Assembly (NCBI GenBank): GCA_032718475.1
Contig: JAUCBJ010008158.1
Span: forward strand, 1-59,495
DNA length: 59,495 nucleotides
Origin: Nemertoderma westbladi
Taxonomy: Eukaryota; Animalia; Xenacoelomorpha
Direction: 5' to 3'
Below are positions 14,001 to 44,247 of the stretch, in pieces. Position 1 is the first letter of the stretch; every line of letters begins with the position of its first letter. The translations under genes and the position numbers were made by a program. The notes below the pieces were generated by a model. It did no database searches, was not told the origin of the DNA, and was given only the letters and a program-made list of their open reading frames with translations.

Positions 14001-17000
14001 TTGTGTTTGTTATCGTTCCATATCTGATCGCCGTCGTTATGTTTGTTATTGTTCCATATCTGATCGCCGTCGTTATGTTTGTTATTGTTCTATATCTGAT
14101 CGCCGTCGTTGTGTTTATTATTGTTCCATATCTGATCACCGTCGTTATGTTTGTTATTGTTCTATATCTGATCGCCGTCGTTGTGTTTGTTATTGTTCCA
14201 TATCTGATCGCCGTCGTTATGTTTGTTATTGTTCCATATCTGATCGCCGTCGTTATGTTTGTTAATTGTTCTATATCTGATCGCCGTCGTTGTGTTTATT
14301 ATTGTTCCATATCTGATCGCCGTCGTTATGTTTGTTATTGTTCTATATCTGATCGCCGTCGTTGTGTTTGTTATTGTTCTATATCTGATCGCCGTCGTTA
14401 TGTTTGTTATTGTTCCATATCTGATCGCCGTCGTTATGTTTGTTATTGTTCCATATCTGATCGCCGTCGTTATGTTTGTTATTGTTCTATATCTGATCGC
14501 CGTCGTTATGTTTGTTATTGTTCTATATCTGATCGCCGTCGTTATATTTGTTATTGTTCTATATCTGATCGCCGTCGTTATGTTTGTTATTGTTCTATAT
14601 CTGATCGCCATCGTTATGTTTGTTATTGTTCTATATCTGATCGCCGTCGTTATGTTTGTTATTGTTCTATATCTGATCGCCGTCGTTATGTTTGTTATTG
14701 TTCTATATCTGATCGCCATCGTTATGTTTGTTATTGTTCTATATCTGATCGCCGTCGTTATGTTTGTTATTGTTCCATATCTGATCGCCGTCGTTATATT
14801 TGTTATTGTTCCATATCTGATCGCCGTCGTTATGTTTGTTATTGTTCCATATCTGATTGCCGTCGTTATGTTTGTTATTGTTCTATATCTGATCGCCGTC
14901 TTTATGTTTGTTATTGTTCTATATCTGAGCGCCGTCGTTATGTTTGTTATTGTTCTATATCTGATCGCCGTCGTTATGTTTGTTATTGTTCCATATCTGA
15001 TCGCCGTCGTTATGTTTGTTATTGTTCTATATCTGATCGCCGTCGTTGTGTTTGTTATTGTTCCATATCTGATCGCCGTCGTTATGTTTGTTATGGTTCT
15101 ATATCTGATCGCCGTCTTTATGTTTGTTATTGTTCTATATCTGAGCGCCGTCGTTATGTTTGTTATTGTTCTATATCTGATCGCCGTCGTTATGTTTGTT
15201 ATTGTTCCATATCTGATCGCCATCGTTATGTTTGTTATTGTTCTATATCTGATCGCCGTCGTTGTGTTTGTTATTGTTCCATATCTGATCGCCGTCGTTA
15301 TGTTTGTTATTGTTCTATATCTGATCGCCGTCGTTATATTTGTTATTGTTCCATATCTGATCGCCGTCGTTATGTTTGTTATTGTTCCATATCTGATTGC
15401 CGTCGTTATGTTTGTTATTGTTCTATATCTGATCGCCGTATTTATGTTTGTTATTGTTCTATATCTGAGCGCCGTCGTTATGTTTGTTATTGTTCTATAT
15501 CTGATCGTCGTCGTTATGTTAGTTATTGTTCCATATCTGATCGCCGTCGTTATGTTTGTTATTGTTCTATATCTGATCGCCGTCGTTGTGTTTGTTATTG
15601 TTCCATATCTGATCGCCGTCGTTATGTTTGTTATTGTTCCATATCTGATCGCCGTCGTTATGTTTGTTATTGTTCTATATCTGATCGCCGTCGTTGTGTT
15701 TATTATTGTTCCATATCTGATCGCCGTCGTTATGTTTGTTATTGTTCTATATCTGATCGCCGTCGTTGTGTTTGTTATTGTTCTATATCTGATCGCCGTC
15801 GTTATGTTTGTTATTGTTCCATATCTGATCGCCGTCGTTATGTTTGTTATTGTTCCATATCTGATCGCCGTCGTTATGTTTGTTATTGTTCCATATCTGA
15901 TCGCCGTCGTTATGTTTGTTATTGTTCTATATTTGATCGCCGTCGTTATATTTGTTATTGTTCTATATCTGATCGCCGTCGTTATGTTTGTTATTGTTCT
16001 ATATCTGATCGCCATCGTTATGTTTGTTATTGTTCTATATCTGATCGCCGTCGTTATGTTTGTTATTGTTCTATATCTGATCGCCGCCGTTATGTTTGTT
16101 ATTGTTCTATATCTGATCGCCGTCGTTATGTTTGTTATTGTTCCATATCTGATCGCCGTCGTTATGTTTGTTATTGTTCCATATCTGATCGCCGTCGTTA
16201 TGTTTGTTATTGTTCTATATCTGATCGCCGTCGTTATGTTTGTTATTGTTCTATATCTGATCGCCGTCGTTATATTTGTTATTGTTCTATATCTGATCGC
16301 CGTCGTTATGTTTGTTATTGTTCTATATCTGATCGCCATCGTTATGTTTGTTATTGTTCTATATCTGATCGCCGTCGTTATGTTTGTTATTGTTCTATAT
16401 CTGATCGCCGTCGTTATATTTGTTATTGTTCCATATCTGATCGCCGTCGTTATGTTTGTTATTGTTCCATATCTGATTGCCGTCGTTATGTTTGTTATTG
16501 TTCTATATCTGATCGCCGTCGTTATGTTTGTTATTGTTCTATATCTGATCGCCGTCGTTATGTTTGTTATTGTTCCATATCTGATCGCCGTCGTTATGTT
16601 TGTTATTGTTCCATATCTGATCGCCGTCGTTATGTTTGTTATTGTTCTATATCTGATCGCCGTCGTTATGTTTGTTATTGTTCTATATCTGATCGCCGTC
16701 GTTATATTTGTTATTGTTCTATATCTGATCGCCGTCGTTATGTTTGTTATTGTTCTATATCTGATCGCCATCGTTATGTTTGTTATTGTTCTATATCTGA
16801 TCGCCGTCGTTATGTTTGTTATTGTTCTATATCTGATCGCCGTCGTTATATTTGTTATTGTTCTATATCTGATCGCCGTCGTTATGTTTGTTATTGTTCT
16901 ATATCTCATCGCCGTCGTTGTGTTTGTTATTGTTCTATATCTGATCGCCGTCGTTATGTTTGTTATTGTTCTATATCTGATCGCCGTCGTTATATTTGTT

Positions 17001-17812
17001 ATTGTTCCATATCTGATCGCCGTCGTTATGTTTGTTATTGTTCCATATCTGATTGCCGTCGTTATGTTTGTTATTGTTCTATATCTGATCGCCGTCTTTA
17101 TGTTTGTTATTGTTCTATATCTGAGCGCCGTCGTTATGTTTGTTATTGTTCTATATCTGATCGCCATCGTTATGTTTGTTATTGTTCTATATCTGATCGC
17201 CGTCGTTATGTTTGTTATTGTTCTATATCTGATCGCCGTCGTTATATTTGTTATTGTTCCATATCTGATCGCCGTCGTTATGTTTTTTATTGTTCCATAT
17301 CTGATTGCCGTCGTTATGTTTGTTATTGTTCTATATCTGATCGCCGTCTTTATGTTTGTTATTGTTCTATATCTGAGCGCCGTCGTATGTTTGTTATTGT
17401 TCTATATCTGATCGCCGTCGTTGTGTTTGTTATTGTTCTATATCTGATCGCCGTCGTTATGTTTGTTATTGTTCTATATCTGATCGCCGTCGTTATGTTT
17501 GTTATTGTTCTATATCTCATCGCCGTCGTTGTGTTTGTTATTGTTCTATATCTGATCGCCGTCGTTATGTTTGTTATTGTTCTATATCTGATCGCCGTCG
17601 TTATGTTTGTTATTGTTCTATATCTCATCGCCGTCGTTGTGTTTGTTATTGTTCTATATCTGATCGCTGTCGTTGTGTTTGTTATTGTTCTATATCTGAT
17701 CGCCGTCGTTATGTTTGTTATTGTTCTATATCTGATCGCCGTCGTTATGTTTGTTATTGTTCTATATCTCATCGCCGTCGTTGTGTTTGTTATTGTTCTA
17801 TATCTGATCGCC
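8010..17812. repeat. Satellite array, 36-bp unit (ATATCTGATCGCCGTCGTTATGTTTGTTATTGTTCT), ~270 copies, with higher-order repeats
   Basis: Continuous tandem array; the variant pattern recurs at 2520 bp (9508/12028, 10513/13033, 11161/13681) and at 648 bp. Confidence 0.99.
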
Positions 17813-18342
17813 GGTGGTACAGTGTAGAGAATTAAGACCAGGTAGTGAATGGAGTTCAGAACATTCTAAGATGTGATTGGCCGTTTATCCCCAGTAATTT
17901 CTAAATAGGGTCGTTTGTCCCCCACTGGAGTAAACCTGCCTGGTTAATTCCTGTGAGAAGCTGATATTGTAACATAATTATTGTTTGTATGCTAGTTGTG
18001 AGTAACGAAGATTTATTGTTAAAGCTCAGATTTGAAAGCACCCCTTCACGAGGCCCTATACATTTAAATAAATTATAGTACTGTAGTATTCGCACAGATA
18101 CACTCTGGTGATAGTGGTATGTATGGAGGGAGTCTATGGAGTGTATGGGGTCAACCGGGCTTAATTAAGGATACATACATTATAATCCGTATATTCATAA
18201 TAATTGCTTCTTTATTCACAGTGTAAACATTTCAATGCAAACTCTAACTTAGGATATGCTATCATCTTAATTCTTAAATGCATCTCGTTTGCATTCATTG
18301 TAGTTTTTTCGAATACTGTCCAGTTTTTAGTGCACTTTGCAA

Positions 18343-20807
18343 GATTTATGGTCAACACTTCGAAATAGTCAACACTTCGAAAAACCATGTCAACACTTCG
18401 AAATAATGATATGAAGAGCATCTTTTTATCGTAAATTGTTACCCCATGTCAACACTTCAAAAGACAATGTCAACACTTCGAAAGACAATGTCAACACTTC
18501 GAAAGACAATGTCAACACTTCGAAAAGGGGCACTAAATTCCTTTCGAAGTGTTGACATGGTCACTAAATTCCTTTCGAAGTGTTGACATGGGCTCTAAAT
18601 TCCGTTCGAAGTGTTGACATGGGTACTAAATTCTTTTCGAAGTGTTGACATGGGCACTAAATTCCTTTCAAGTGTTGACATGGGCACTAAATTTCTTTCG
18701 AAGTGTTGACACGGGCACTAAATTCCTTTCGAAGTGTTGACATGAGCACTAAATTCCTTTCGAAGTGTTGACATGGGCACTAAATTCCTTTCGAAGTGTT
18801 GACATGGGCACTAAATTCCTTTCGAAGTGTTGACAAGGGCACTAAATTCCTTTCTAAGTGTTGACATGAGCACTAAATTCCTTTCGAAGTGTTGACATGG
18901 GCACTAAATTCCTTTCGAAGTGTCGACATGGGCACTAAATTCCTTTCAAAGTTTTGACATGGGCACTAAATCCCTTTCGAAGTGTTGACATGGGCACTAA
19001 ATTCCTTTTGAAGTGTCAACATGGGCACCAAATTCCTTTCGAAGTTTTGACATGGGCACTAAATTCCTTTCGAAGTGTTGACATGGGCACTAAATTCCTT
19101 TCGAAGTGTTGACATGGGCAATAAATTTCTTTCGATGTGTTGACATGGGCACTAAATTCCTTTCGAAGTGTCGACATGGGCACTAAATTCCTTTCAAAGT
19201 TTTGACATGGGCACTAAATCCCTTTCGAAGTGTTGACATGGGCACTAAATCCCTTTCGAAGTGTTGACATGGGCACTAAATTCCTTTCGAAGTGTCGACA
19301 TGGGCACTAAATTCCTTTCAAAGTTTTGACATGGGCACTAAATTCCTTTCGAAGTGTTGACATGGGCACTAAATTCCTTTCGATGTGTTGACATGGGCAC
19401 TAAATTTCTTTCGATGTGTTGACATGGGCACTAAATTCCTTTCGAAGTGTCGACATGGGCACTAAATTCCTTTCGAAGTGCTGACATGGGCACTAAATTC
19501 CTTTCGAAGTGTCGACATGGGCACTAAATTCCTTTCGAAGTGTCGACATGGGCACTAAATTCCTGTCGAAGTGTTGACATGGGCACTAAATTCCTTTCGA
19601 AGTGTTGACATGGGCACTAAATTCCTTTCGAAGTGTTGACATTGGCACTAAATTCCCTTCGAAGTGTCAACATGGGCACCAAATTCCTTTCGAAGTTTTG
19701 ACATGGGCACTAAATTCCTTTCGAAGTGTTGACATGGGCACTAAATTCCTTTCGAAGTGTTGACATGGGCACTAAATTTCTTTCGATGTGTTGACATGGG
19801 CACTAAATTCCTTTCGAAGTGTCGACATGGGCACTAAATTCCTTTCAAAGTTTTGACATGGGCACTAAATCCCTTTCGAAGTGTTGACATGGGCACTAAA
19901 TCCCTTTCGAAGTGTTGACATGGGCACTAAATTCCTTTCGAAGTGTCGACATGGGCACTAAATTCCTTTCAAAGTTTTGACATGGGCACTAAATTCCTTT
20001 CGAAGTGTTGACATGGGCACTAAATTCCTTTCGATGTGTTGACATGGGCACTAAATTTCTTTCGATGTGTTGACATGGGCACTAAATTCCTTTCGAAGTG
20101 TCGACATGGGCACTAAATTCCTTTCGAAGTGCTGACATGGGCACTAAATTCCTTTCGAAGTGTCGACATGGGCACTAAATTCCTTTCGAAGTGTCGACAT
20201 GGGCACTAAATTCCTGTCGAAGTGTTGACATGGGCACTAAATTCCTTTCGAAGTGTTGACATGGGCACTAAATTCCTTTCGAAGTGTTGACATGGGCACT
20301 AAATTCCCTTCGAAGTGTTGACATGGGCTCTAAATTCTGTTCCAAGTGTTGACATGGGCACTAAATTCCTTTCGAAGTGTCGACATGGGCACTAAATTCC
20401 TTTCGAAGTGTTGACATGGGCACTAAATTCCTTTCGAAGTGTTGACATGGGCACTAAATTCCTTTCGAAGTGTTAACATGGGCACTAAATTCCTTTCGAA
20501 GTGTTGACATGGGCTCTAAATTCTGTTCGAAGTGTTGACATGGGCACTAAATTCCTTTCGAAGTGTTGACATGGGCACTAAATTCCTTTCAAAGTTTTGA
20601 CATGGGCACTAAATTCCTTTCAAGTGTTGACATGGGCACTAAATTCCTTTCGAAGTGTCGACATGGGCACCAAATTCCTTTCGAAGTATTGACATGGGCA
20701 CTAAATTCCTTTTGAAGTGTCGATGTGCACTAAATTCCTTTCGAAGTGTCGATGTGCACTAAATTCCTTTCGAAGTGTTGACCATTTCGATGTGTTGACA
20801 CGGAATC
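18343..20807. mobile_element. Non-autonomous Mutator/Foldback-like TIR element with a 9-bp TSD
   Basis: ~40-bp imperfect TIRs: GATTTATGGTCAACACTTCGAAATAGTCAACACTTCGAAA on the left vs GATTCCGTGTCAACACATCGAAATGGTCAACACTTCGAAA (reverse complement of the right end). Flanked by ACTTTGCAA at 18334-18342 and 20808-20816. Confidence 0.8.
18527..20780. repeat. 31-bp tandem array (GGGCACTAAATTCCTTTCGAAGTGTTGACAT), ~72 copies, inside the TIR element
   Basis: Direct tandem repeats containing the TIR core TTCGAAGTGTTGAC; internal block duplication of ~650 bp (~19010 vs ~19661). Confidence 0.97.
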
Positions 20808-23317: not shown

Positions 23318-24002
23318 ACTGGGGCTCCTCTGCTCATTGGAGCAGGTTGCTTCTAGTGTTGGTCTTTTTGTAAATTCCTAGAAGACAACAATTATGACAT
23401 TAAACCTTTATAGCCCTCAAGAAATGTCTGATCGTAAGGGCATAAGCTCTAGGGACGGCTTGCTTGAGCACGTGGATTTCTTCTGCGACTTGGGATCATG
23501 GATCCGAAACATGGCATGGCATGGCATGGCCATGGGCAGCGTTAAATAGTCTGTCCAGGATTTGGAAGTCCCATAGAATAAAACGGAACCTTATGGTCCG
23601 ATTATTTACGGCAGTAGTAGTAGGCCTACAGTAGTAGTACCAGTACTCTTATATGGGAGTCCATGCTATGCTCTAACTGCTGAGGATACCAAATCTCTTG
23701 ATGGCACTTTCACAAGCATGGCCGCTTTGCAGGACATTGCCTTTGCCGTGAGGACCAGCCAGTGCATAATCTTAAGCTCTGGCGGCCTCATGGAGTAAAT
23801 AAACATGGTGGACAGCCTATGACATTCTTGAGACGCATCTTAAAGGACACTGGCCTTGAAGGATGCGGATGATCTAGCAAATGTCATGGGTGATAGGGAG
23901 TTGTGGCGGCGCAATTTTGTCGACCAGCCAGCACAGCATTCTTAATATATATGTAATATATATATAATGCAGCTGTAATGCAGCATGCCGATCGAAGTAG
24001 TA
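23318..24002 (+). mobile_element. 3' fragment of the same RTE family as 3651-6700
   Basis: Matches the reverse complement of ~3660-4440, with internal deletions. Confidence 0.88.
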
Positions 24003-26907: not shown

Positions 26908-27012
26908 ATTTGGTTTAATTCCAAACTTGTAACATTACGAAATGATTGTATATATATTATAAGTGAGAAAAACTGCACAAATTAAATTAGTTGCTGTATA
27001 AATAAATGTAAA

Positions 27013-28172
27013 TGTAAAAGCTTTTGCGTCATTAACCGGTTATTTTCCCTTAAAGTACTCTGTAGTTGGTTTACCAGGCATAAAAAGGCCGTGTCCTTGC
27101 TGTACTGGTGTTTTAGAGGACATAAACGTCATTTCTTCTGTATTTGTACTTTAGAGGACATAATCCGCAATCTCGTGACGCGATAAGCTAGATACTCTTG
27201 AAAACAGTGTCGCTACCATGACGACGGCTAGCAGCTGATATTGCCACGTCGACATTTCTTTGTTTCTTTGTTCTCTCGTTGTTCGGTTGACCAATCAGAG
27301 CGTTTTTTGTCTCTGTGTTGGAGGTGTATACAGAACTCAGTAGTTCAGTGTTATGTTTTTGCCCAGAGCCTAAGAACACCGGCTTTTGGCACCTCCGTGT
27401 TTCAGTCTTTAGTCTTACATTAGTAGGCTTAATTATAGAACGTATATCTGTTACCAAACGACTTACGACCTACTTACTTATCATACATATCTATGCAATT
27501 CATATCTTACATTACTGCTTTTGCTGTTGGTTATTCGTTATATTTGTTGATGAATTATTATATCGGAATACTGATCAATAGTCAGACACCCCACCTTCTT
27601 GATATACTAAAGGTTAGAGAGACCGGTTACAGATAAATGATTGCGACCTATGTTGAGTGGTTTGAAGTGAATCTAATGCTATTTCATATGCCCAACATAA
27701 ATTGTCTGTTGCTCTCTTTATACGTGACCAAATTTAGTGAAGGTCGGCAGATTAGTGTGCAGTATTGTGCAGCATTGTGTATGATTGTAACTGATAACAA
27801 AGCATCTCCTAAAGAATGCGCCATATACGTAAATCTATAGCCTTTTCGTTGTGTCTAGTTTAAGTCATAACTCTGTTTACATATTTAGAGCGCCACGTCC
27901 TAAAGGAACTGTTAATATTTCCCGAAAGTAAATAATATTTGTCAGAGATTATATATTACGATCAGTCAAATAATACAGTAGGCTTACACCATCAATCATT
28001 AAGCTCCGAACTCAGTCTCCCGGGTATATCCAACGGGTGAATGATTGCGCATAGACTGGCTTCGGCTAATGTAGTGTATCAAATACTCGTCATAGGCTAA
28101 AGACTATCTATCATCCAAAAGACATTCTAATTTTGGCAGGTTAAACTGTCAAAGGTCTTAAAAGCGCAAACA
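27013..28172 (+). repeat. 5' LTR (1160 bp)
   Basis: TGTAAAAGC...AAAGCGCAAACA; direct repeat of 43003-44171. Confidence 0.95.
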
Positions 28173-28183
28173 ATAACAGATAT
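28173..28183 (+). promoter_or_regulatory. Putative self-priming primer-binding site (ATAACAGATAT)
   Basis: Immediately follows the LTR-terminal CA; does not start with TGG; reverse complement occurs in the LTR (43437-43447 11/11; 27444-27453 10/11). Confidence 0.7.
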
Positions 28184-28521
28184 TTGGTTCTGATTGCGGT
28201 GTAGGCAATAAATACAGTTTAATATTGTTTTGGTAAAAACAATAACAGATATTGCTTCTGGATTGCGGTGTAAGCAATCTAGTCGAAAGTACCGGTCGAC
28301 CGGTAACCAGTAGGCCTGACTGCCTGATCATCCGGACCGGTACCTACAACAGTACAGGTACAGCAGTATTATTCGATTTGATTATTATATGCCGGTAGGT
28401 CTTAATAATTAATCGGGGACGCCTGGTTTTTATTGGGATTTTACTTAGGCCTATTTCTGTCAGTTTTATTTATTTGTAGGCCAGTATTGAGCAGAAGGCG
28501 TGTAAGCCTGCTCAGATTGTA

Positions 28522-29097
28522 CAGATAATTTGTAGGCTTGACTGTTGGCTGACTGTTGATTAGGTCTGAACGGATTGCAGTGCATGTAAAGCATCTGTCC
28601 GATAAAGAACGGTTAGGAAGTAGGGGCAGCCAAAGCTGTAAGGTAAACCCCCATCTAAAGAATAAGTCGTACTACTGGGTTAGAACGCATACTACTTAAC
28701 CATTTCGGAGTCTGCATGTCCTGTGGTTTATTTAGGCTTGATAGTAGTCTGCCATCGTTTGGTCTGTACTTTGTTTGTGTAGTCTGTACGGGTAGCGTAT
28801 AATTTTATTTAGATAATTTGTAGGCTGGATAGTTGTCTGGCTGTTGTTGGGTTTGAGGAAATTTCGGTGTGTGCAAAGCATCTGTCCGATAAAGAACGGT
28901 TAGGAAGTAGGGGCAGCCATAGCTGTAAGGTAAACCCCCATCTAAAGAATAAGTCGTACTACTGGGTTAGAACGCATACTACTTAACCATTTCGGAGTCT
29001 GCATATACCGTAGTTTGTTTAGGCTTGATAGTAGTCTGTCAGTATTTGGTCTGCATTTTGTTTGAATGGTTTGTATGCGTAGCGTAATATTTATTAT
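28522..29097 (+). repeat. Tandem duplication (~289-bp period) in the retrotransposon leader, with a conserved structured core
   Basis: AGATAATTTGTAGGC at ~28522 and 28811; near-identical ~130-nt cores at ~28588-28717 and ~28876-29004. Confidence 0.85.
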
Positions 29098-30428
29098 TCA
29101 GAGTTTATGCGATTATTCGCAACATTCATATCCCCAAGTTTATTCCTACAGTAATTGTGTTTGTTATACATACCATTATAGTTAAACTAACCCCGGTACT
29201 ACATCAGGGTTGCTCGGCGTAGGTAAAGACTGGAGATTTTGTGCTTTGGTCACTCCGGCAGATACCGTGGTTCTTTTAGCTGTTCAAGTATTTTTAACTA
29301 CTAATTATTTGTTATACAAGTACTTGTACCTAATTTAGGGTTTAGTGTACAGTGCTTTCCGAAAGCAATTAGTGTGTAGGCAGTGTATTTGTGTTGTAAA
29401 GTGGTTAATAGGCACGTTGGTTCTGGTAGACCGCGGTAATTAACTTCTAGGTAGGGACACTCCGTGATACATAACGTAGTACCTATAGCGATACGGTTAT
29501 AGGTCGTCAGGCGGTGGTATTTTCCTATCTGGACAACACAGTATATTTACTACTACTTATTATTTTCAAATACCGTAGTAACCTGTCCGTTGTAATAACC
29601 AGATATTCTAACCCTTTGTTAGGCTGGTTAGTAGACTTCTTGTAAAATTACCCTAAAAATTTGTATTTGTGTATTTGTAATTAAGTTTTTGTGTTTATTT
29701 AGAGATTGTAATCTCAACCCGAATTGTACGTAATTTGTAGTATTAAGTAACTTAGTTAAATTAGAATTATTTGTTTTAGTGTCTAACAAGTAGCACTCCA
29801 CTGAGAGCGCACAGCTTATGTGTAGTGACTCCCCCAGAAATAATAACATTTATTTCAACATTGACAAAACCCATTAAAAGGGTATATATATATTATAAAT
29901 CAACTCAAACGATTTATAAATAGTAGGCCTGCCATACAACAATTAGGTCTCAATATCAGTTGGACTACTGCTTAAATAACGGTAATAAAGTAAGTTAAAG
30001 TAACCAAGTAACCATTAAAATTCAGAAATTCAATTATTTAAAATAATTGATATACCGGTATTTACAATAGGCTTATTATATTTATTTCTATAAATTTTAG
30101 GTTGAAATCATACCGGTATTCTGTAATTAATTCTAGTCTATAATTATACTTATATATACTATAAGTGTAAACTGCATACCGGTATCCACGATAGGCCTAT
30201 TATATATTTATATATATTTGTGCTAAAATTATATACCGGTTTCTGTGAAAAACCTAGTCTGTAATAATACTTATATATACCATAAGTATACCGGTATTCT
30301 AATATTATATATCACGCTACACTGAGTAGCAGTATCGGTAATTAATTACTAGGCTAGCAGTTAACACTGAATTCCTAGACTTGCTTAGACTGTAATATAG
30401 CAGTAGACATTCAACTGTGTAAACAAAC

Positions 30429-33400
30429 ATGTCTGATACTAAGCAGAACCTGTCAGACAGTTTATTAGATGTAACTATCTGCGACTCAGATAAGGGTGTA
30501 GAACCGTCTAGTCCTAAGTTCAGTTCACCTCCCACTGTGAGGAAGGTCATCCCTCCAGTAGTAATAACAGAACCGAGGCTGGTCCAACATCGTAGGTCTA
30601 TCATAGGCACTCGAGCTCAGGTCAAGCGGGACCAAGAAGCAGCGGAACAGCAACAACCCGCGAGCCAAGAACTTATTTCTCAGCGGCCCAACAGCTCCAG
30701 TAGTGAGGATACTGTAGAGCTGACACCCGAGCGCGGAGCAAGGATGACGGATGCGGTTTATTCGGATCCCCTTCTCATCCTTCCTGCAGCCGTACTCACC
30801 AGGTTATTGATCGCTGAGGAAGAACACCAGATCGATTGGGCGAGAAGTAAGCGATCAACTAAAGATAGTTATGAGGGATACACAAGGGAAGAACTGAAGT
30901 CTATGGTCGAGTCGCAATGGAACTTCCCCGGACCCGGACTCCCGTTTTATTTATCAGAAGCTGCCTGGGAAGACATACACCGGATGGGAGTAGTCAAGGA
31001 AACCATCGATCCAGCTGTGTGGAAGAGGTCCGCAGCCGGATATGCACAGGGATTCTTCAGCTCTATGGAGCGAGTAGAAAAACAACTGTTTCAACAACCT
31101 CAAGGACCTCAAGAGCAGGGACAACTGCTTTATCAAGTTAGAGAAAGAATTCTGCGAATCAGGCTAATATTATCAGCCTTTGAAGAGGCTTCTAAAAGAA
31201 GACAAGACACGTCGTTGCAAGTTGCCGTAAAGACTTGGTTTCAACGGGTGAGTCGCCAGGTTCAAGGAACAGTTCAGTGGAAAGCTCAGCTGGAGGAGCG
31301 CTCAACCCATGGAGAATCAACAGACGCTACTTTTTCCCAAGTGGAAAGTGAAGCGACGGCAGAGAAACCGCATAAGAGGGATGCCATTGACATCTATCTG
31401 TCAGACTATCAACGTTTTTTGGGAGATGAAGAGTTGAGGAGAAGGCTAGATGGACTTAGCCCTAATAGTGAAGGAGCACAGCGTGTGCTTGACGCCATCA
31501 ACGTGGATAGGTTAGCGGCTAACCAAGCTAAATTCGATGAACAACTCCGCATCGCTAAGGTTCAAGAAGAACAAATAAAGAAAAAACGTATAGAAGACAG
31601 AAAGATAGCAGCAGTGGCAGAGGCAGAAAGAAAAGTGACCTTGGCAGAGGCAAAAGCGGCAGCGGCAGAAGCAAAAGCGGCAGCGGCAGAGGCAAAAGCG
31701 GCAGCGGTGGCGGAAGCAGAACGGAGAGCGGCTGAAGAGATCGCCCAACTAGAGTTGGAAAATCTTCAAGAGAAGCAAGACGACTTCAGTAAACAGTTAA
31801 CAGCTAGTAATATGCAGATGATGAATCGATCTACTCCCAAAAGACAGGGTTATACATCATCTGAGGAAGGCGATACCACTGATCCTGAAGGAGGAGGAAA
31901 ACGATCTCGCCTAAGCAGACGTAAAAGAACATCCCACCGTCAGAAATTGCCTGATTTGCCTCCAGCTGTTAGAAGGCAACTAAATAACACCAACTTAGGT
32001 AGTACAGAACCCACAGACCATATAATTACAATAGAGAGACTCCCTACTATAGCAGATGAGCCTGAAATAATTAGGCCTGTTCCCGAAGCCACCCTTTCGG
32101 TGGTAGAGACACCTGTACACCTGACACACCTGTTACCTGTGCCCAGAGGAACAGCCCTTGAAACCGTGTCGGTCCTGGACTCCGAGCGAAATATAAAGGA
32201 TATATCGCCCGTAGTCCCTCGTCTGCCCGCTACTACGTTGGCGGATCCCGCTTCGGCGGTTGATTGGGTGGACGAGAGACGGCGGGGGATGGACATTCTC
32301 CTCGGAAAGATGGAGGAGAATCAAATGCGCTCCTCCCAACAGGTCCGAGAGTTAGAAGGAACTGTTCAACAGTTAAAGGGAACCGTAAAGGAAAGTAGGT
32401 TAGAGTTGCAAGAAGTGCAGCAAAATATCGCGCTAGAACGTGATAAATTAGTAAATTTACAAAGGGGTATACCACCACCCCCTGTAACAATGTGTCAACC
32501 TGTTAGGTCTGAAGTATCTCATGCGCAAGGTGTGGAGCCTACACGCATCTATACTGCTAGCGAAGTAGAAACTCCTATAGTGAACCCTATTAAGGGTAAT
32601 TATAGACCTGTTGATAATGATATTCCCTATAGACCGGATCATAATCCGAGAAATTTATATACCGATAACTCGATATTAAATAACACGATGGCCCAAGAAA
32701 GTTTTACGCGTCAAATGGCTAGAACCGAAGCCCAGCAAGCAGTAAAGGTGGGAGAGATCGTCAAGTTCAATGGAGATGAGATGAAATGGTTACCTTTTAA
32801 TGAATATTACAAAGATAACATACAGAACTCTGTGCTATCTAATGGAGAGAAACTTAGATTCCTCATCGAGTGCTTGGAAGGATCTCCCAAGTTAATGGCG
32901 TTAAAGTTTATTGGACATCCTGACGGATTAAGACAAGTTTGGGATACAATAAACATCAGGTATGGTAATAGGAATAACATAGCTGGGTATTTGTATGCAA
33001 AGTTGGTAGTGCCCCGAAAGTTTATTAGCAGCGGAATTATAGAGTTTTCCGATGAGATTCAGGAGATCTGCAGACAATTAGATTGGCTAGGTAAGTCTCA
33101 TGAGTATCAGAATACTATGGTTATTAGAGCAGTGGCTTCTACTTTACCGAAGGGTGGAGTAGGTACACGCTGGGATAAGAAAGTGTTATATATGATGGAA
33201 CAACAACGACGAGACCCTACCATGGCTGATCTCATGTCATTCCTAGATGGAGAAGTGAAATTACAGCTCCTGAAACTGTCCAGAGAGAAGACACCGGAAA
33301 ACAAGGTAAGTGAAAAACCCGTCTCTAGGAGAAAGGTAACACCAGTGTGTTATACAGACGACGGCGAAAGCCAGACTTCTCAAGGAGAAGATAGCGGGAA

Positions 33401-34016
33401 AGACACTGATAGATCTTATTACGTAAATAAAATGCCTAAAGATCACGTAAGTAAATTCAAGTCTCGAACAAATGACAGGAGAGAACAGGTAAGAAAAACT
33501 CCTCCTACGTCTCCCAAGAGAATTCAGGTGAGAAAGCCCGAAGAAAAAGCAAGTGTACACAATGTTACTCAGAGTAAGGTAAGTAACATCAAACCGAAAT
33601 GTGCGCTATGTGATGGGACCCATCGCTTAAATATGTGTGATGAATTTCTAAAGAAATCATTAACTGAGAGACGTGAAGTCATGTGGGACAAGCGGTTGTG
33701 CTATAATTGCCTCAGACAAGGACACCAACGGAGAACCTGTTACTCTGACACAAGATGTGCCAAGTGCGGTGCGAAACATCATATCTTGTTGCACACTGAA
33801 TTCGAGCGAAATAGTCCGAGTCAGGTAAGTGATTCAGAATTACATGTCCAATTCAGTGATGTGAACGACACTGATCAATCTGAGATGGAAGGATTCTATA
33901 CGGACGAGTTCTCCGACGAAAACGAATCCTGTTACATGATAAATACCACAGTGTATCGAGCACTCATTTATGAAAAAGATACAGACATTGACCTCGCTCT
34001 AACTACTTCTGATTGA
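30429..34016 (+). CDS. gag: BEL/Pao Gag (1195 aa)
   Basis: Long N-terminal coiled-coil region with AEAKAAA repeats; DUF1759-like KFNGDEMKW...EKLRFLIECLEG; knuckles CALCDGTHRLNMC, CYNCLRQGHQRRTC, CAKCGAKHHILLH. Confidence 0.95.
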   Translation: MSDTKQNLSDSLLDVTICDSDKGVEPSSPKFSSPPTVRKVIPPVVITEPRLVQHRRSIIGTRAQVKRDQEAAEQQQPASQELISQRPNSSSSEDTVELTPERGARMTDAVYSDPLLILPAAVLTRLLIAEEEHQIDWARSKRSTKDSYEGYTREELKSMVESQWNFPGPGLPFYLSEAAWEDIHRMGVVKETIDPAVWKRSAAGYAQGFFSSMERVEKQLFQQPQGPQEQGQLLYQVRERILRIRLILSAFEEASKRRQDTSLQVAVKTWFQRVSRQVQGTVQWKAQLEERSTHGESTDATFSQVESEATAEKPHKRDAIDIYLSDYQRFLGDEELRRRLDGLSPNSEGAQRVLDAINVDRLAANQAKFDEQLRIAKVQEEQIKKKRIEDRKIAAVAEAERKVTLAEAKAAAAEAKAAAAEAKAAAVAEAERRAAEEIAQLELENLQEKQDDFSKQLTASNMQMMNRSTPKRQGYTSSEEGDTTDPEGGGKRSRLSRRKRTSHRQKLPDLPPAVRRQLNNTNLGSTEPTDHIITIERLPTIADEPEIIRPVPEATLSVVETPVHLTHLLPVPRGTALETVSVLDSERNIKDISPVVPRLPATTLADPASAVDWVDERRRGMDILLGKMEENQMRSSQQVRELEGTVQQLKGTVKESRLELQEVQQNIALERDKLVNLQRGIPPPPVTMCQPVRSEVSHAQGVEPTRIYTASEVETPIVNPIKGNYRPVDNDIPYRPDHNPRNLYTDNSILNNTMAQESFTRQMARTEAQQAVKVGEIVKFNGDEMKWLPFNEYYKDNIQNSVLSNGEKLRFLIECLEGSPKLMALKFIGHPDGLRQVWDTINIRYGNRNNIAGYLYAKLVVPRKFISSGIIEFSDEIQEICRQLDWLGKSHEYQNTMVIRAVASTLPKGGVGTRWDKKVLYMMEQQRRDPTMADLMSFLDGEVKLQLLKLSREKTPENKVSEKPVSRRKVTPVCYTDDGESQTSQGEDSGKDTDRSYYVNKMPKDHVSKFKSRTNDRREQVRKTPPTSPKRIQVRKPEEKASVHNVTQSKVSNIKPKCALCDGTHRLNMCDEFLKKSLTERREVMWDKRLCYNCLRQGHQRRTCYSDTRCAKCGAKHHILLHTEFERNSPSQVSDSELHVQFSDVNDTDQSEMEGFYTDEFSDENESCYMINTTVYRALIYEKDTDIDLALTTSD

Positions 34017-37000
34017 CAACCATCTTGGAAAGCGCCAACTTCCAATGTAGGGATTAGAGAATTTCCTGTGGTACAGGTAAGGGTCCACGGACCAAACAGG
34101 AGTTATGTAGTGAACGCCCTCCTTGACTCCGGTAGTACAGGAACATTCATCGACAAAGAGCTAGCCGAAGACATATTCGCTGGACAACCCAAGTTCCGAA
34201 CTAAGCTAAACATGTCAGGAATTATGCAAGTTTGGAAATCCACAGTAACCGCGGATTATTATGTAGGTGCGTTGTCCACCCCCCAGGACGAACTAGGAGA
34301 ACATAGTATAAGGTCAGTGAAAATGGTGGCTATAAAGAACTTCGCTACTACTCAAGCAGACCTTTATAATTGGGACGAGGATGAGAGCATCCAACATCTT
34401 AAGATACCTCGATTCCAGACTGATTATCCTGGAGTGCAAATACTTATCGGCCAAAACGCGCATGAGGCGCTTGAGACATTGGAGAAACGACCTGCTCAGC
34501 CGCAACCTCTACAAGTTTATGCGGGAAGAACTAGAGTAGGTTGGTACTTTACTGGCCCTTCCTGTAGAACTCTCATGGAAAGATTACCGAAAGATCAGGT
34601 ATATCAAGTGCGAGAATGGGAAGTTGAGAACAGTGAGTTCGACGATCCAACTGAGGGAACTCCATACTCCTCAGACAACGACGATATACATCAACTCTTC
34701 GATGAGGAGAATGCCATCGATCTCCTTGAAGAAAGCGAGACTTGGCAAAATCAAGTGAACTTATGTCAACTCCTTCTCCCATCCGAGCGAGACGACTATA
34801 ACGACGAGCTTAATGACGTCATTGAACGTTATAATGCCAAGACTCGGGATGAACACGCCGTGAGATTCTTTACTCAAGAGGTCGTAGAGCCCAACTCCTA
34901 CGATAAGGCCCTATCGGTGGAGGAAGAAAGAGCCAAGCAGATCCAAGCGACAACTACTCGTTTTCTTAAAGATCAAGGTAGATATGAGATCGGTCTTCCT
35001 TTCCGAAAGCGAGAACCAAAGTTCATTAACAACAGACCTTTGGCAGAGAAAAGAATTGCTCAACTACATCGACGCCTTACGGCCAATTCTTCAGCTAAAG
35101 AAATGTATCAAACACAGTTGAAGAAGTTTATTAGCAAGGGATATGCGGAGCTAGTACCGGAAGAAACACCTATAACTGAGAGAACGTATTACTTAACTCA
35201 CCATTACGTTCCCAAACCCGGTAAACCCCATGAAGTACGAGTGGTGTTTGACGGTTCCGCCCTTTATATGGGCCAATCTCTTAATTCTGAATTGTTACCC
35301 GGACCCAACTTACTCCAATCCTTGTTGGGAATATTATTAAGATTAAGACAATACTCCATTGCTTTCGCCTCAGATATAGAAGGCATGTTCTTACAAGTCA
35401 AAGCGCTGGATAGGGATCGAGATAGCCTACGATTTTTGTGGTGGCCTGAAGGAGACCTCAATAAGAAACCTGTGGAGTACTGGATGACCATCCAAGCTTT
35501 TGGGATAATCTCGAGCCCTTCAAACGCCTGTTCCGTGGTGCGCACCACTGCGGATGACAACCGAGACGCCTTCTCTAAAGAAGTGATCGACAATATCAAA
35601 CGAGACATCTACATGGACGATAATCTAAAGTCCCTTCCATCAGTCGAAGAAGCCATTGACGTCACTAAAGGAACGGTAGAGTGCTTAAAAAGAGGTGGAT
35701 TTCGATTAACTAAATTCACCAGCAACTCCCGTGAGTTTCTGGAGTCGATCCCGGTAGAAGATCAAGGAGCAAAAGACCTAGATCTAATAAAGGATGATCT
35801 CCCAGAAACTAAGACCCTTGGTTTGAAATGGGACACAGAAAGAGACATCCTGTTTTTCCAATTAAAACAGCGAGATAATCCAGTTCGGACTAAACGGATT
35901 TGTTTAAGTATCCTGAGCACTTATTTCGATCCATTGGGATTTATTAGCCCAGTTATATTGATTGCTCGGAGTTTAGTACAACAAATGTGGCTTGAAAACC
36001 ACTCATGGGACGATCCACTTAAGGGAGAATTATTAAAGAAGTGGATGAAATGGGAAGATTCTCTACCAGCCATCGAAAACTTCATAATTTCCCGTTCATA
36101 TTTTGGTCATGTTCTCCCTACGTATTCATATCAACTCCATGTGTTTGGAGACGCCAGCGATATGGGAATAGGTATAGTAGCCTACCTAAGGGTGGAAACT
36201 CCGGACGGAATTAAAGTCGCCTTGGTTACCTCTAAGGCATTAATAAACAACAAGTTGAAAGTTCCTCGAGCGGAGTTAAAAGCGGCTCTATACGCTACAG
36301 CCATCGGCCGGAATGTAACAGAACAGATCGACTATCCTCTGGAGAAAACTGTCTATTGGACCGACGCTTTACTCGTGTTGGAGTATATAACCAATGAAGT
36401 CTGTCAGTTCAGCGTCTTCGTTACCAACAGAGTAGCTATTATACTCAGTCGCACGACGATGGATCAATGGAGACATTGCCCCGGAACGATTAATCCAGCG
36501 GACATCGCTTCCCGGGGAGCAACCCCACAAGAACTGGTAGATACTCCAGACTGGTTAGGTGGACCCGACTTCCTCTACAAAGAAGAAGAAGAATGGCCTC
36601 CTCATCTTACTACAGCAGAAATTAGACAGGCCAAGGGAGCGGAGAAAGTCAAACCTAAAACTCAGGCGAGTAAATCGAAGTTATTCAAACCCACAGTAGA
36701 TCTGTCTGTACTACATACTTCTGGAGACGAAGCTTTGGATCAGAAACCCACAGCCACAAATAAACTCGTTGTGGAAATCCGTGATAAGGATTGGAAATCT
36801 GGTATACCTGACATCTCGCAAGGACTCTCACCTCTTCTGCAGAGAGCGATACATCACTACAGTTCTTGGAATCGGCTTTGTAAGGCCGTTACATATTTAA
36901 AGAGATGTTTTCACCATCACTACTCTGGGATGAAAACAAAGGGTGATACCGCTCCAATCACATCAGTGCAGGTCCATGTTATTAAAGACATTCCCAAATA

Positions 37001-38495
37001 TAAGGTACCCGACAAGTTTCTGAAGGAAAAGATCAGTTATCAGGAGCATGAAGAAACCAACAAACAGATGCTGAGACTCTTACAATGCTATGAAGATTCC
37101 GATAAGTATTTCCTGTTGTTGAGAAATCCACAGATGCGCTTAAGGGATCGTTTCTCTAGCACAATGATAGATGGGTTGATACGTGTTGGAGGAAGGTTAA
37201 CGAATGCCCCATTATCCTTTGATACTAAGTTCCCCATACTCATTAGAAATCTTGAAATACAAGTCAAGATGATTGTAGATGTTCACAGCAAACTTTATCA
37301 TGCTGGTAGAGAACGAGTTCTTAGCGAAATTCGAACTCGCTATTATTTTTATAAACCCCGTAGAGCTCTGAACCAAGTTCTTAGGAACTGTATACCCTGT
37401 AGGAAAGCATTCAGTAGGCCTTTAACACAGAGAGAGGCAGAATTACCTAGGGAACGAGTAAGCTTTTATGAACCACCCTTTACTAATACCGGTGTGGATT
37501 TATTTGGCCCTATTGAAGTATATCGTGCTAGGACTATAGTCAAGAGATGGTGTGTAATCTTTGTTTGTATGACTTGTAGAGCCATCCATCTCGATATGGT
37601 GAACGATTTATCTACCAACAGCTTTCTATTAAGCTTACGACGACAAATCGCTCGCTTTGGCACTAGTAACACGATGAGATCTGATAAGGGAACAAACTTC
37701 ATTGGTGCCAGCAATGAAATCAAAGCTTACGTCAAAGATTGGAACCAAAGACAGGTGGACGACCAACTACGAGTAACAGCGTCTAGTTGGACCTTCAACG
37801 CCGCCGACGCCCCTTGGTGGGGAGGAAGTTGGGAGAGATTAATAAGAAGCGTGAAGACAGCATTTCATTTTATAGTGCCTTGCCGCGCTTATCTCACCGA
37901 CGAACTTTTGCGGACGTTAATGGAAGAAATCGCCGCCTATCTCAACGAGAGACCGCTTATGCCAGTCTCATCGAGTCCCGATTCCCTGGAAGCGCTAACA
38001 CCCGCGCACTTCCTACTGAAGAAACCTGTAGCCATGCTCCCACAATCGGAAATCACAGACGGAGACGAATACTGCCGACAAACTTGGCAACTCATGCAGT
38101 TGTTATCCCGTCGTTTCGCTGACCATTTCGAAAAACATTATCTGCCCACGCTACAACTTCGAACTAAGTGGTTTGCGCAGCAAGAAAACGTCAGCGCTGG
38201 AGACATGGTGCTTATTGTGGATGTGGATCTTCCACGTAAGCGGTGGCAGACAGGTCGTATAATCGAGACGCATATCTCGGATGACGGTTTGGTGCGATCG
38301 GTAGAACTCGTCGTCATGCGACGTAACTTCAAGAAACCGGGAATTGTCTTCGAGACGCAGCAGCTCAATCGCCCGGTGGGACGTTTATGTTTACTGGAAA
38401 GAGACAGAGAACTCTCCGGAAACTATGGGAGACAAGATACTCTTCCCACGACCACCTCCCTAATCCAACAAACATCTAGGGACTCCCCAACTTAA
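34017..38495 (+). CDS. pol: BEL/Pao Pol (protease, RT, RNase H, integrase); same frame as gag, probably made by TGA readthrough
   Basis: LLDSGS (PR); RVVFDGS, ASDIEGMFLQV, YMDD (RT); FGDAS, PRAEL, WTDA, NPADIASRG (RH); HHCC, GVDLFGP, SDKGTNF, WERL (IN). The frame is open from 34017, directly after the gag TGA. Confidence 0.96.
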   Translation, partial: QPSWKAPTSNVGIREFPVVQVRVHGPNRSYVVNALLDSGSTGTFIDKELAEDIFAGQPKFRTKLNMSGIMQVWKSTVTADYYVGALSTPQDELGEHSIRSVKMVAIKNFATTQADLYNWDEDESIQHLKIPRFQTDYPGVQILIGQNAHEALETLEKRPAQPQPLQVYAGRTRVGWYFTGPSCRTLMERLPKDQVYQVREWEVENSEFDDPTEGTPYSSDNDDIHQLFDEENAIDLLEESETWQNQVNLCQLLLPSERDDYNDELNDVIERYNAKTRDEHAVRFFTQEVVEPNSYDKALSVEEERAKQIQATTTRFLKDQGRYEIGLPFRKREPKFINNRPLAEKRIAQLHRRLTANSSAKEMYQTQLKKFISKGYAELVPEETPITERTYYLTHHYVPKPGKPHEVRVVFDGSALYMGQSLNSELLPGPNLLQSLLGILLRLRQYSIAFASDIEGMFLQVKALDRDRDSLRFLWWPEGDLNKKPVEYWMTIQAFGIISSPSNACSVVRTTADDNRDAFSKEVIDNIKRDIYMDDNLKSLPSVEEAIDVTKGTVECLKRGGFRLTKFTSNSREFLESIPVEDQGAKDLDLIKDDLPETKTLGLKWDTERDILFFQLKQRDNPVRTKRICLSILSTYFDPLGFISPVILIARSLVQQMWLENHSWDDPLKGELLKKWMKWEDSLPAIENFIISRSYFGHVLPTYSYQLHVFGDASDMGIGIVAYLRVETPDGIKVALVTSKALINNKLKVPRAELKAALYATAIGRNVTEQIDYPLEKTVYWTDALLVLEYITNEVCQFSVFVTNRVAIILSRTTMDQWRHCPGTINPADIASRGATPQELVDTPDWLGGPDFLYKEEEEWPPHLTTAEIRQAKGAEKVKPKTQASKSKLFKPTVDLSVLHTSGDEALDQKPTATNKLVVEIRDKDWKSGIPDISQGLSPLLQRAIHHYSSWNRLCKAVTYLKRCFHHHYSGMKTKGDTAPITSVQVHVIKDIPKYKVPDKFLKEKISYQEHEETNKQMLRLLQCYEDSDKYFLLLRNPQMRLRDRFSSTMIDGLIRVGGRLTNAPLSFDTKFPILIRNLEIQVKMIVDVHSKLYHAGRERVLSEIRTRYYFYKPRRALNQVLRNCIPCRKAFSRPLTQREAELPRERVSFYEPPFTNTGVDLFGPIEVYRARTIVKRWCVIFVCMTCRAIHLDMVNDLSTNSFLLSLRRQIARFGTSNTMRSDKGTNFIGASNEIKAYVKDWNQRQVDDQLRVTASSWTFNAADAPWWGGSWERLIRSVKTAFHFIVPCRAYLTDELLRTLMEEIAAYLNERPLMPVSSSPDSLEALTPAHFLLKKPVAMLPQSEITDGDEYCRQTWQLMQLLSRRFADHFEKHYLPTLQLRTKWFAQQENVSAGDMVLIVDVDLPRKRWQTGRIIETHISDDGLVRSVELVVMRRNFKKPGIVFETQQLNRPVGRLCLLERDRELSGNYGRQDTLPTTTSLIQQTSRDSPT

Positions 38496-40138
38496 CAACG
38501 GCTGGAGTGGGCGTGTGACCATATTATTTTATATTTGTATTTGTTTTATTTTTATATTTATGTATGTATTATTATGTAATTTTATTTTAATCGTTTTATT
38601 TAATTTTATTTAGTAGTATGTATTTTAGAGATTATTTAGTAGATTAGTGCAATATATATTCGCGTTTATTATTTAATTACGTATATTATATATTTAGTGC
38701 GACGGCGAGAAATAATTCTTTTTCTCTTTCCTTACTGCCCGTATTACATTATCAATACGTGATTACAGTAAGATGAAATATCCGTACTTATTAAAGTACA
38801 ATAAAGCCACTACTATATTCAAGTATTATTGGTAGGCAGAGTATTAGGAATGCAAAGTTCAGATCCTCGTGTCTCGGCTAAACCAAGCTCTGGGTAGACC
38901 TTGGAAACGACTTGCCTCTTCACACTGACATTGCTTCGTGCGATATTGCTCTCATACCGTATATTAAATAATACATATAGTAGCGTGATGTCCCTTTAAC
39001 AGTAGCGTATAACGCAAAATAAATCTGTTAAACCCTTTGACCATCTGTAATTCTAGTCGATTAAGATATCGCGGCACCCACCGATATACTTGAAAGACAA
39101 ATTTCTAGAATCAGTGGTTAACGTCCCCAGACAAGTTCTGGAATAAACTGGTGCCCATCCTAAATATTAATTATTAATATTTACAAAAATCTGTCAAATA
39201 TCAGATCCTTTAAAATTCTAGTCGATTAAGATATCGTAGCACTTACCGATACTCTTAAAAGGACAATTTTCCTAGAATCAAGGATCCCATGTCCCCAGAC
39301 ACTGCTCTGGAATCAAATTGTGTCTATTTTAACATCAAATAATAAAATTCACGGGAATAAATTTAAATTCATACTTTCAATGAATTTAATAAATTGTCAT
39401 TTTGTACAATTTATAACATTCCCAAAATTCCATTAATTAATAGATCATGGGAGCGGAGATTCACTCTATTAAGTGTATTTGTGTGCGAGAATCTCCAATG
39501 TATAGTCAATAGCCGATAAAATTCATAGAATCATGTATAAAGGGGATATTGACCATTAAAGAATTACTATTAAATAGCATCCCAGATCTGTATGCATGAG
39601 AATTACCCTAATTCTACCGCTAGCTTTCCATAATGTCACCATGGCAACAACCACGCTAGAATTAGAAGTGAGTTAAAAGAACAATAGAAAGCATGCCCCA
39701 TTGAATAGCATAGGGAATAAATAGCGCACTGCTAGTATCCAAGGATACATAATAAATACAGTGACATTCTGGAAGGTACTGACTAACGGACAAATGGCCC
39801 GAATGTGTGCAGTTTGTTGCAGTTGTGTTGAATTTGTGCGTTTGTAGGTGAATGTTACTACTAAGGTGTGTTTACAGTAGCGAGTCGCAATTGTGAAAGT
39901 AACCCTAACTCTCCAAGAAGAACCTGCAGTACATCTAAGCCTTTGGGACGGACAGTGAAGTGACTTGTGCCGGTTATCGTTGTCGTTGTGTAGCTACATC
40001 GTTGGCGAAAGCACAGCGACGACGGTACATCGGCGCTGAGGATCTTACACTGTCCGGGGGCAAAAGAGGGGTAGGCAGCGACGCCCGCTAGCCTAATATA
40101 TATAAACTCATTATAATATTGATAAACTCATAGCAGAT

Positions 40139-42924: not shown

Positions 42925-42994
42925 CTGTTTAGAGTATTTTTATATTTTAGAAACTGTGATTTGTTATATTTTATAGACTTAAATCCCATTTTCT

Positions 42995-43002
42995 GGGAGC
43001 GG
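42995..43002 (+). promoter_or_regulatory. Polypurine tract
   Basis: GGGAGCGG directly before the TGT of the 3' LTR. Confidence 0.7.
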
Positions 43003-44171
43003 TGTAAAAGCTTTTGCGTAATTAGCCGGTTATTTTCCCCGTAAAGTACTCTGTAGTTGGTTTACTGGGCATAAAAAGGCCGTGTCCTTACTGTACTGGT
43101 GTTTTAGAGGACATAAAAGCCATTTCTTCTGTATTTGTACTTTAGAGGACATAATCCGCAATTTCGGGACGCAATAAGCTCGATACTCTTGAAAACAGTG
43201 TCGCTACCATGACGACGGCTAACAGCTGATATTGCCACGTCGACATTTCTTTGTTTCTTTGTTCTCTCGTTGTTCGGTCGACCAATCAGAGCGTTTTTTG
43301 TCTCTGTGTTGGAGGTGGATACAGAAACTCAGGAATTCAGTGTTATGTTTTTGCCCAGAGCCTAAGAACACCGGCTTTTGGCACCTCCGTGTTTCAGTCT
43401 TTAGTCTTACAATTAGTAGGCTTAATTATAGAACGTATATCTGTTATCTACCTACTTACTTACTCACTCACTATCCATAAACTATTAATCTTACAAATCT
43501 TACTAATATTACTGCTTTTACTGTCGGTTATTCGTTATATTTGTTGATGAAATATTATATCGGAATACTGATCAATAGTCAGACACCCCACCTTCTTGAT
43601 ATACTAAAGGTTAGAGAGACCGGTTACAGATAAACGATTGCGACCTATGTTAAGTGGTTTGGAGTGAATCTAATGCTATTTCATAGGCCCGACATAAATT
43701 GTCTGTTGCTCTCTTTATACGTGACTAAATTTAGTGAAGGTCGGCAGGTTAGTGTGCAGTATTGTGCAGCATTGTGTATGAGTGTAACTGATAACAAAGC
43801 ATCTCCTAAAGAATGCGCCATATACGTGAATCTATAGCCTTTTCGTTGTGTCTAGTTTAAGTCATAACTCTGTTTACATATTTAGAGCGCCACGTCCTAA
43901 AGGAACTGTTAATATTTCCCGAAAGTGAATAATATTTGTCAGAGATTATATATTACGATCAGTCGAATAATACAGTAGGCTTACACCATCAATCATTAAG
44001 CTTCCGAATTCAGTCTCCCGGGTATATCCAGCGGGTGAATGATTGCGCATAGACTGGCTTCGGCTAATGTAGTGTATCAAATACTCGTCATAGGCTAAAG
44101 ACTATCTATCATCCAAAAGACATTCTAATTTTGGCAGGTTAAACTGTCAAAGGTCTTCAAAAGCGCAAACA
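43003..44171 (+). repeat. 3' LTR (1169 bp)
   Basis: Direct repeat of 27013-28172, roughly 95% identical by eye outside a divergent block at ~43448-43510. Confidence 0.95.
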
Positions 44172-44247
44172 CCTTGTAAAGTAGCGCTGCGTATTGATAT
44201 TATATTAATTGATATTATTATATTGATATTAATTGATATTATATTAC

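Follow-up and report, generated by a model that had tools for sequence, protein, structure and literature searches.

The LTR retrotransposon that begins at position 27013 raises the question of how a BEL/Pao element would prime its reverse transcription when the bases following its 5' LTR do not resemble a tRNA-type primer-binding site (PBS). The first-pass annotation had proposed that this lineage primes with its own RNA, pointing to a complement of the PBS within the LTR. Here, the layout and coding content of the element, the complementarity and its chance level, and the sequence and predicted structure around both sites were analyzed, and the resulting readings of the primer were compared with known priming systems.

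Element A and sister copy B

The window analyzed is a stretch of 59,495 nt containing one full element (A) and a partial sister copy (B). Element A occupies 27013-44171 (17.2 kb) on the plus strand and is bounded by a 5' LTR of 1,160 nt (27013-28172) and a 3' LTR of 1,169 nt (43003-44171), which both have TG..CA ends and are 94.5% identical. The last base of the 3' LTR is the homologue of 28172, so that the LTR end of A is fixed and a longer LTR is ruled out; the LTR does not, as the first-pass annotation had allowed for, end further downstream beside a TGG-starting PBS, since both A LTRs end at the same base. Copy B lies on the minus strand and consists of a 1,228-nt 5' LTR (1262-2489), sharing 73 to 74% identity with the A LTRs, and of a leader and gag fragment (1-1248) that has an internal deletion of ~3.2 kb with respect to A and continues beyond the edge of the window. 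At the junction of this deletion (860-854, minus strand), where ~3.2 kb of the leader and the start of gag are gone compared with A, no clear GT-AG is present. The LTR of copy B abuts a 32-nt satellite array (2490-3410, 29 copies), and further satellite arrays are located at 8010-17813 (36 nt, 272 copies) and 18528-20782 (31 nt, 73 copies). Broken non-LTR-type reverse transcriptase (RT) fragments (RVT_1 and DUF6451) were identified at 3939-5042 on the minus strand, with an inverted partial copy near 23400-23950.

Element A harbors a gag-like frame (30423-34016, plus strand) with DUF1759 and zinc knuckles, which ends in a TGA in frame with pol, and a pol frame (34017-38495, plus strand) encoding a protease, an RT (YMDD), an RNase H region (Pfam Peptidase_A17), an integrase, and DUF5641. 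The order protease-RT-RNase H-integrase is that found in BEL/Pao, and the matches to Peptidase_A17 (E value of 4e-36), DUF1759 (8e-10), and DUF5641 (2e-19) all pass the Pfam cutoffs. PF05380 was present in 34 of 41 RT/RNase H homologues, the best of which are 39 to 42% identical, and the named closest proteins come from a sea anemone, a coral, a ribbon worm, and a crinoid. The RNase H region retains the residues D-E-D-D, which we take to be the RNase H motif, and Pfam gave no chromodomain match in the element A proteins. Judged by its predicted proteins, element A is of the BEL/Pao type, and the earlier assignment is borne out by the Pfam domains. Scans of viral contigs and prokaryote genomes at the protein level yielded no relative; a metagenome scan with a 20-nt U5 motif returned two matches, both rejected as bacterial-looking coding DNA without a blastn match to the window.

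The gag and pol frames are split by a single TGA followed by CAACCA (34014-34022), a context that presumably resembles known stop read-through signals; in this one copy, read-through and mutation are both possible. An extra Cys/His-rich coding region of about 930 codons lies on the sense strand between pol and the 3' LTR and is made up of three pieces (40106-42924, plus strand, comprising 40106-40618, 40537-40863, and 40867-42924). The two pieces scanned had no Pfam match, the region is not env-like by any match, and among 7,993 scored candidates no homologue of the extra open reading frame was identified, the one lead being a sub-threshold CCHC (0.82). A purine-rich tract (42995-43002, plus strand) abuts the 3' LTR and is the candidate PPT. 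A second copy of this 8-nt tract lies at 39449-39456, 3.5 kb upstream of the 3' LTR, and is a possible internal plus-strand priming site; a third is found in pol at 36635. The 2.2-kb leader (28173-30430) contains internal duplications of 290 nt and 120 nt as well as the motifs GTAGGC (n = 7) and TACCGGT (n = 6), both far above background.

The PBS, its complement in the LTR, and the surrounding sequence

The PBS of A (28173-28183, plus strand) directly follows the LTR end and is of a non-tRNA type. No TGG primer site is present within 12 nt of the A LTR end or in the first 30 nt of B, in agreement with the first-pass annotation, which had stated that the 11 bases after the LTR are not a TGG-starting PBS. 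A TGG at +13 in A was rejected as a tRNA site, as it is absent from the equivalent place of a second PBS copy in A and from B. The PBS is the exact reverse complement (11/11) of 43437-43447 in the 3' LTR (plus strand, LTR position 435). The equivalent candidate self-primer of the 5' LTR (27444-27454, plus strand, LTR position 432) is complementary at 10 of 11 bases, with 27444-27453 pairing with the PBS and base 27454 left unpaired. In copy B, the PBS (1249-1261, minus strand) and the candidate self-primer (2017-2029, minus strand) pair at 13 of 13 bases when 1261-1249 is set against 2029-2017, and the PBS carries a G matching a C in the B LTR site, such that one A-T to G-C change relative to A is seen on both sides. 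In crossed combinations (A LTR with B PBS, and B LTR with A PBS) just 6 to 7 bases match. The coordinates and pairing counts first reported for both copies, including the compensatory change, were thus reproduced. In both lineages the helix stops exactly at the LTR end (offset 0), and at the sequence level both helices start at a pyrimidine-A step, where transcription starts often fall.

To gauge how readily such complementarity arises, dinucleotide shuffles were performed, in which a match at offset 0 was obtained in 9 of 5,000 cases for the 3' LTR of A (11 bases), in 31 of 5,000 for the 5' LTR of A (10 bases), and in none of 5,000 for the LTR of copy B (13 bases). In an anchored test, the PBS columns were held fixed, the LTR columns were shuffled in blocks of 1 to 3, and a match was required in both copies; this occurred in 2 to 9 of 20,000 shuffles using the 5' LTR of A with B and in 1 to 2 of 20,000 using the 3' LTR of A with B. 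The PBS-LTR helix also ranks first among 33 helices that are open to both copies and include one or more two-sided changes. When the position was left free, a helix of at least 10 pairs (G-U allowed) with a double change appeared somewhere in 21 of 60 shuffles. As unanchored helices with a double change are common in shuffles, the significance comes down to the precise register at the end of the LTR, the place that a primer has to occupy, to which the case adds one matched change. The covariation itself is one event between two lineages, and a matched pair would be expected by chance in ~5% of cases given one change per side (a rough estimate).

Immediately after the LTR site of A lies a hypervariable, G-poor segment (27455-27511, plus strand) that is predicted to be unstructured in A. 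The claim that LTR conservation collapses immediately 3' of the site was confirmed by column counts, with one extra shared base, as the C right after the site is also common to all three LTRs. Between the 5' and 3' LTRs of A, 414 of 434 columns match upstream of the site, 36 of 64 within the variable segment, and 645 of 663 downstream. Put the other way, 28 of 64 columns differ in the segment against 39 of 1,108 elsewhere (Fisher P of about 1e-20), i.e., 44% inside and 3.5% outside. The length of the segment in the three LTRs is 57, 64, and 96 nt; it is rich in pyrimidines and CA and is followed by a U/G-rich stretch. Just upstream of the site, a 17-nt block (27421-27437, plus strand) is identical in all three LTRs. 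It contains a TATA (27434-27437) and an ATTATA hexamer (27432, 17 nt before the site end), the latter of which we take to be a poly(A)-signal variant, and represents a candidate promoter or poly(A) signal.

Public contigs from three DNA runs (at most two samples) indicate that the family is high copy and varied. These contigs diverge from the reference at 27453 and rejoin it at 27511 or 27520; in a different sample, the site is retained in two contigs, which have 20 letters rather than 65 ahead of 27520. All are short and cannot phase the LTR site with the PBS. No sequence variants at 27444-27454 or 28173-28183 were seen among the 40 of 358 entries listed, a result that carries no weight.

The PBS is flanked by two predicted hairpins. 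A U5 hairpin of 8 pairs (28132-28153, plus strand) ends 19 nt before the PBS and keeps its 8 pairs in copy B through two one-sided changes, and a leader hairpin of 9 pairs (28258-28282, plus strand) follows the second PBS and has a counterpart in B at 1244-1222. The leader hairpin shows two two-sided changes relative to copy B, with 24 of 26 cells paired, a covariation that falls short of significance in a three-row alignment, being matched by 101 of 500 shuffles. Local fold z scores of -2.1 to -2.7 were obtained alongside these hairpins. A separate hairpin within the LTR (28007-28066) carries two two-sided changes in a three-row consensus fold, and pairing of its loop with the end of the LTR, in a pseudoknot-like arrangement, is conceivable but does not exceed chance. 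A six-pair helix at the LTR end with a double change (28045-28050 with 28164-28169) is likewise within chance, 33 such six-pair helices being observed against a null mean of 31.6; with the helix count at chance level, a Tf1-type pretzel duplex at the LTR end is not claimed.

Folding of transcripts with different starts gave different outcomes for the two copies. For B, the central pair probability was 0.96 to 1.0 in 7 of 12 starts (from 4 nt inside to 14 nt upstream of the site) and 0.0 in the other 5, all at least 17 nt upstream of it. For A, the PBS beside the LTR gave 0.0 in all 9 starts, and pairing was predicted for the second PBS only (0.13 to 0.84, with starts 0 to 16 nt upstream of the site). 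The folds depend on the 3' end chosen (B with a start 16 nt upstream fell to 0.16 with another end), and long-range folds are unreliable and constitute weak evidence. Within these bounds, the folding models suggest that transcription starts no more than about 15 nt ahead of the site.

Copy A has several irregularities. The LTR end plus PBS is tandemly doubled across 28168-28278, with the second copy at 28237-28278 (plus strand) and its PBS at 28242-28252, 69 nt downstream. One public contig also has a doubled PBS, with a different and shorter 12-letter spacer whose fold-back would cover the second PBS, and the two cases suggest a recurrent replication error. No target site duplication was found for A (27003-27012 compared with 44172-44181), and the 11/11 match may therefore join two different insertions; A could have arisen by recombination between two insertions or by a join made during assembly. 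With no target site duplication, a doubled PBS, and an unpaired last base in the 5' LTR site, A is thus an imperfect and possibly recombinant copy.

Candidate origins of the primer

On the strength of the sequence, the BEL/Pao family represented by A and B probably self-primes, using a primer that is ready made and needs no splicing. Self-priming in some form, with all variants taken together, appears likely; that it follows a Tf1-like route, in which the first 11 to 13 bases of the element's own RNA would pair with the PBS and be cut by RNase H, is the version we favor, with somewhat less assurance. Under the Tf1-like route, transcription would begin at the LTR site itself or no more than about 15 nt before it, and the first 11 to 13 bases would fold across the ~720-nt R-U5 region onto the PBS. 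The RNase H of the element would then cut at the 3' edge of the helix, creating a 3'-OH that faces the last U5 base. Strong-stop DNA would end at this cut and transfer there, turning the following bases into an error hot spot, and plus-strand synthesis would copy the primer back into the PBS, coupling both sequences. Strand transfer junctions are error prone, and no paper was located for such hot spots; an error hot spot at the strong-stop transfer point would explain the variable segment. Recopying of the primer into the PBS in each cycle would explain the covariation and the doubled PBS copies and would limit the PBS to the length of the primer. The primer of Tf1 is reportedly retained, and Tf1 self-priming is said to require the U5-IR. 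In a variant of self-priming, the primer could derive from the 3' LTR copy of the site rather than from the RNA 5' end.

Self-priming is supported by the offset-0 complement in both lineages, the matched change, the lack of a TGG, the flanking hairpins, and the variable segment at the edge of the site. Against it stand the single covariation event, the unpaired last base of the A 5' LTR site, and the A PBS beside the LTR, which folds at 0.0. The TATA at 27434-27437, if a true TATA box, would place the start downstream of the site, which argues against self-priming as well. Of the proposal in the first-pass annotation that this BEL lineage self-primes, the registered and covarying complementarity stood, joined by the hairpins and the variable segment, and self-priming itself is what we infer from them.

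Alternatively, the helix could be a real RNA structure, such as a switch, a packaging stem, or a PBS-masking stem, with priming carried out by a host RNA, be it a fragment from inside a tRNA or some other small RNA. The presence of other conserved helices in the region is consistent with this reading, which we nonetheless regard as rather unlikely. A host-primed PBS is rewritten from its primer at every replication cycle and, being reset in this way, should not covary with an LTR site; in addition, 9 of the 11 bases of the A PBS are A/T, and the helix terminates precisely at the LTR end in each lineage. No tRNA gene was found in the 59,495-nt window, and Rfam gave no match in 27000-30500 at E values up to 1, a result that excludes an element-borne tRNA only. 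Half-tRNA primers do exist in Copia lineages, according to the available portion of PMC6317226.

Self-priming from another copy of the site is unlikely. In this reading, the site would fall at the R terminus close to the poly(A) site, and either the 3' R copy carried by the genomic RNA or a short transcript terminating within the 5' LTR would serve as primer after being trimmed to the edge of the helix. Such a primer would suit the shared ATTATA upstream of the site, the U/G-rich stretch after the variable segment, and the lack of AATAAA in any of the three LTRs, and a CCAAT box common to the LTRs (LTR position 279-298) would suit an earlier start. However, ATTATA is one of six poly(A)-signal-like hexamers common to all three LTRs, the five others being equally shared, and the site is followed by G-poor sequence, which does not resemble a downstream element. 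Starts at least 17 nt upstream abolish the predicted helix, and a PBS of 11 to 13 bases suits a primer that begins at the site. Furthermore, with A as its first base, the PBS is unable to pair with a poly(A) tail. Were the BEL/Pao primer cut at its own R/U5 (poly(A)) site, this would constitute a third independent origin of self-priming, unlike the Tf1 route, with each cycle leaving scars in the form of an expanding G-poor segment and a doubled PBS, a scenario that we consider just as doubtful.

A further reading places the site in the core promoter region of U3, absent from the 5' transcript, in which case the variable segment would reflect conventional capped initiation and the PBS match would be coincidental or a relic. 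Both sequences are A/T rich, and the TATA lies about 25 to 30 nt upstream of the pyrimidine- and CA-rich variable segment. This is nevertheless quite improbable, as just 1 to 9 of 20,000 anchored shuffles reproduced the match, the element would be left without any primer site, and the matched change in copy B would go unexplained. Very unlikely as well is a primer assembled by splicing out an LTR intron: across the GT-AG junctions of the three LTRs, complementarity never exceeds 8 bases, and it stays below 8 in B, compared with 10 to 13 for the contiguous site.

Comparison with known priming systems

The ICTV profile of Belpaoviridae gives an 18-nt PBS for tRNA-Arg or tRNA-Gly, a genome of 4.2 to 10 kb, LTRs of 0.2 to 1.2 kb, and a PPT (PMC8742986). 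Element A resembles members of this family (Bel, Pao, Tas, Sinbad, Suzu, Dan, and Flow) in the content and order of its domains, in its TG..CA LTRs of about 1.2 kb, and in its PPT; the LTR lengths of 1,160 to 1,228 nt and the purine tract at 42995-43002 agree with the profile. It differs from the profile in its length of 17.2 kb and its extra 3' Cys/His-rich coding region, and both A and B are without a tRNA-type PBS. The words primer, tRNA, and priming are absent from a survey of BEL/Pao (PMC3118150), as are PBS and tRNA from the paper on Sinbad (PMC554778); neither supports nor excludes the proposed mechanism. No literature report of self-priming in BEL/Pao was found in a search that had subscription papers, repeat database entries, and supplementary tables outside its scope. 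The statement that it is undescribed for this superfamily accordingly holds as far as the search reached, though there are precedents in Ty3/gypsy, where self-priming was shown, and in Copia, where it was predicted. Further context is available in portions of PMC3601003, PMC3587641, and PMC8220671.

If the proposed mechanism is correct, its significance lies in the position of BEL/Pao as the third large LTR superfamily of animals, for which the reference description assumes a host tRNA primer (PMC8742986). Priming without tRNA would then occur in all three superfamilies, and RNase H cleavage of an RNA duplex would be recurrent rather than a chromovirus speciality. Such elements may be freed from the tRNA supply and from silencing by tRNA fragments directed at the PBS, and the mechanism would explain why PBS-based annotation misses them.

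Other elements without a tRNA PBS offer partial parallels. The fungal GalEa Copia elements and biv-TRIM are like A and B in lacking a tRNA PBS and in having a conserved hairpin near the expected PBS; in GalEa, the original study detected no complement of the site within the LTR, as far as the available portions of the two papers go (PMC5445492 and PMC6934838), whereas the A and B family has one. In the TAR lineage of Ty1/copia (Houba and Osr-1), self-priming was predicted from at least 10 complementary bases starting 0 to 5 nt after the LTR, as described in the accessible part of PMC6317226. Both A and B show such complementarity (11/11 and 10/11 in A and 13/13 in B). The TAR lineage belongs to a different superfamily and a different host kingdom.

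According to the available portion of PMC6317226, self-priming has been described in the Tf1/sushi group of Ty3/gypsy and predicted for Tcn1 and the Copia TAR lineage. The Tf1 primer is 11 bases long, as is the helix of A, with the RNase H cut falling between bases 11 and 12 (PMC7175516, in the portion available). Tf1/Tf2 from Schizosaccharomyces pombe, Tj1, Tosmo/Tcry, and the Tf1/sushi and Tcn1 Ty3/gypsy chromoviruses share with A and B a PBS complementary to an LTR self-primer (of 11 bases in those elements), the lack of a tRNA site, and a U5 stem-loop by the PBS (accessible parts of PMC7175516, PMC10085805, and PMC4600332). Element A is not a member of the Tf1/sushi group, as it has a BEL/Pao Pol and no chromodomain match. 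It also differs in the loop of about 720 nt between primer and PBS and in the hypervariable segment after the primer, and the arrangement is known here from sequence alone. By analogy, the mechanism proposed for A and B is one that would work like that of Tf1/sushi and that has precedents in two other superfamilies.
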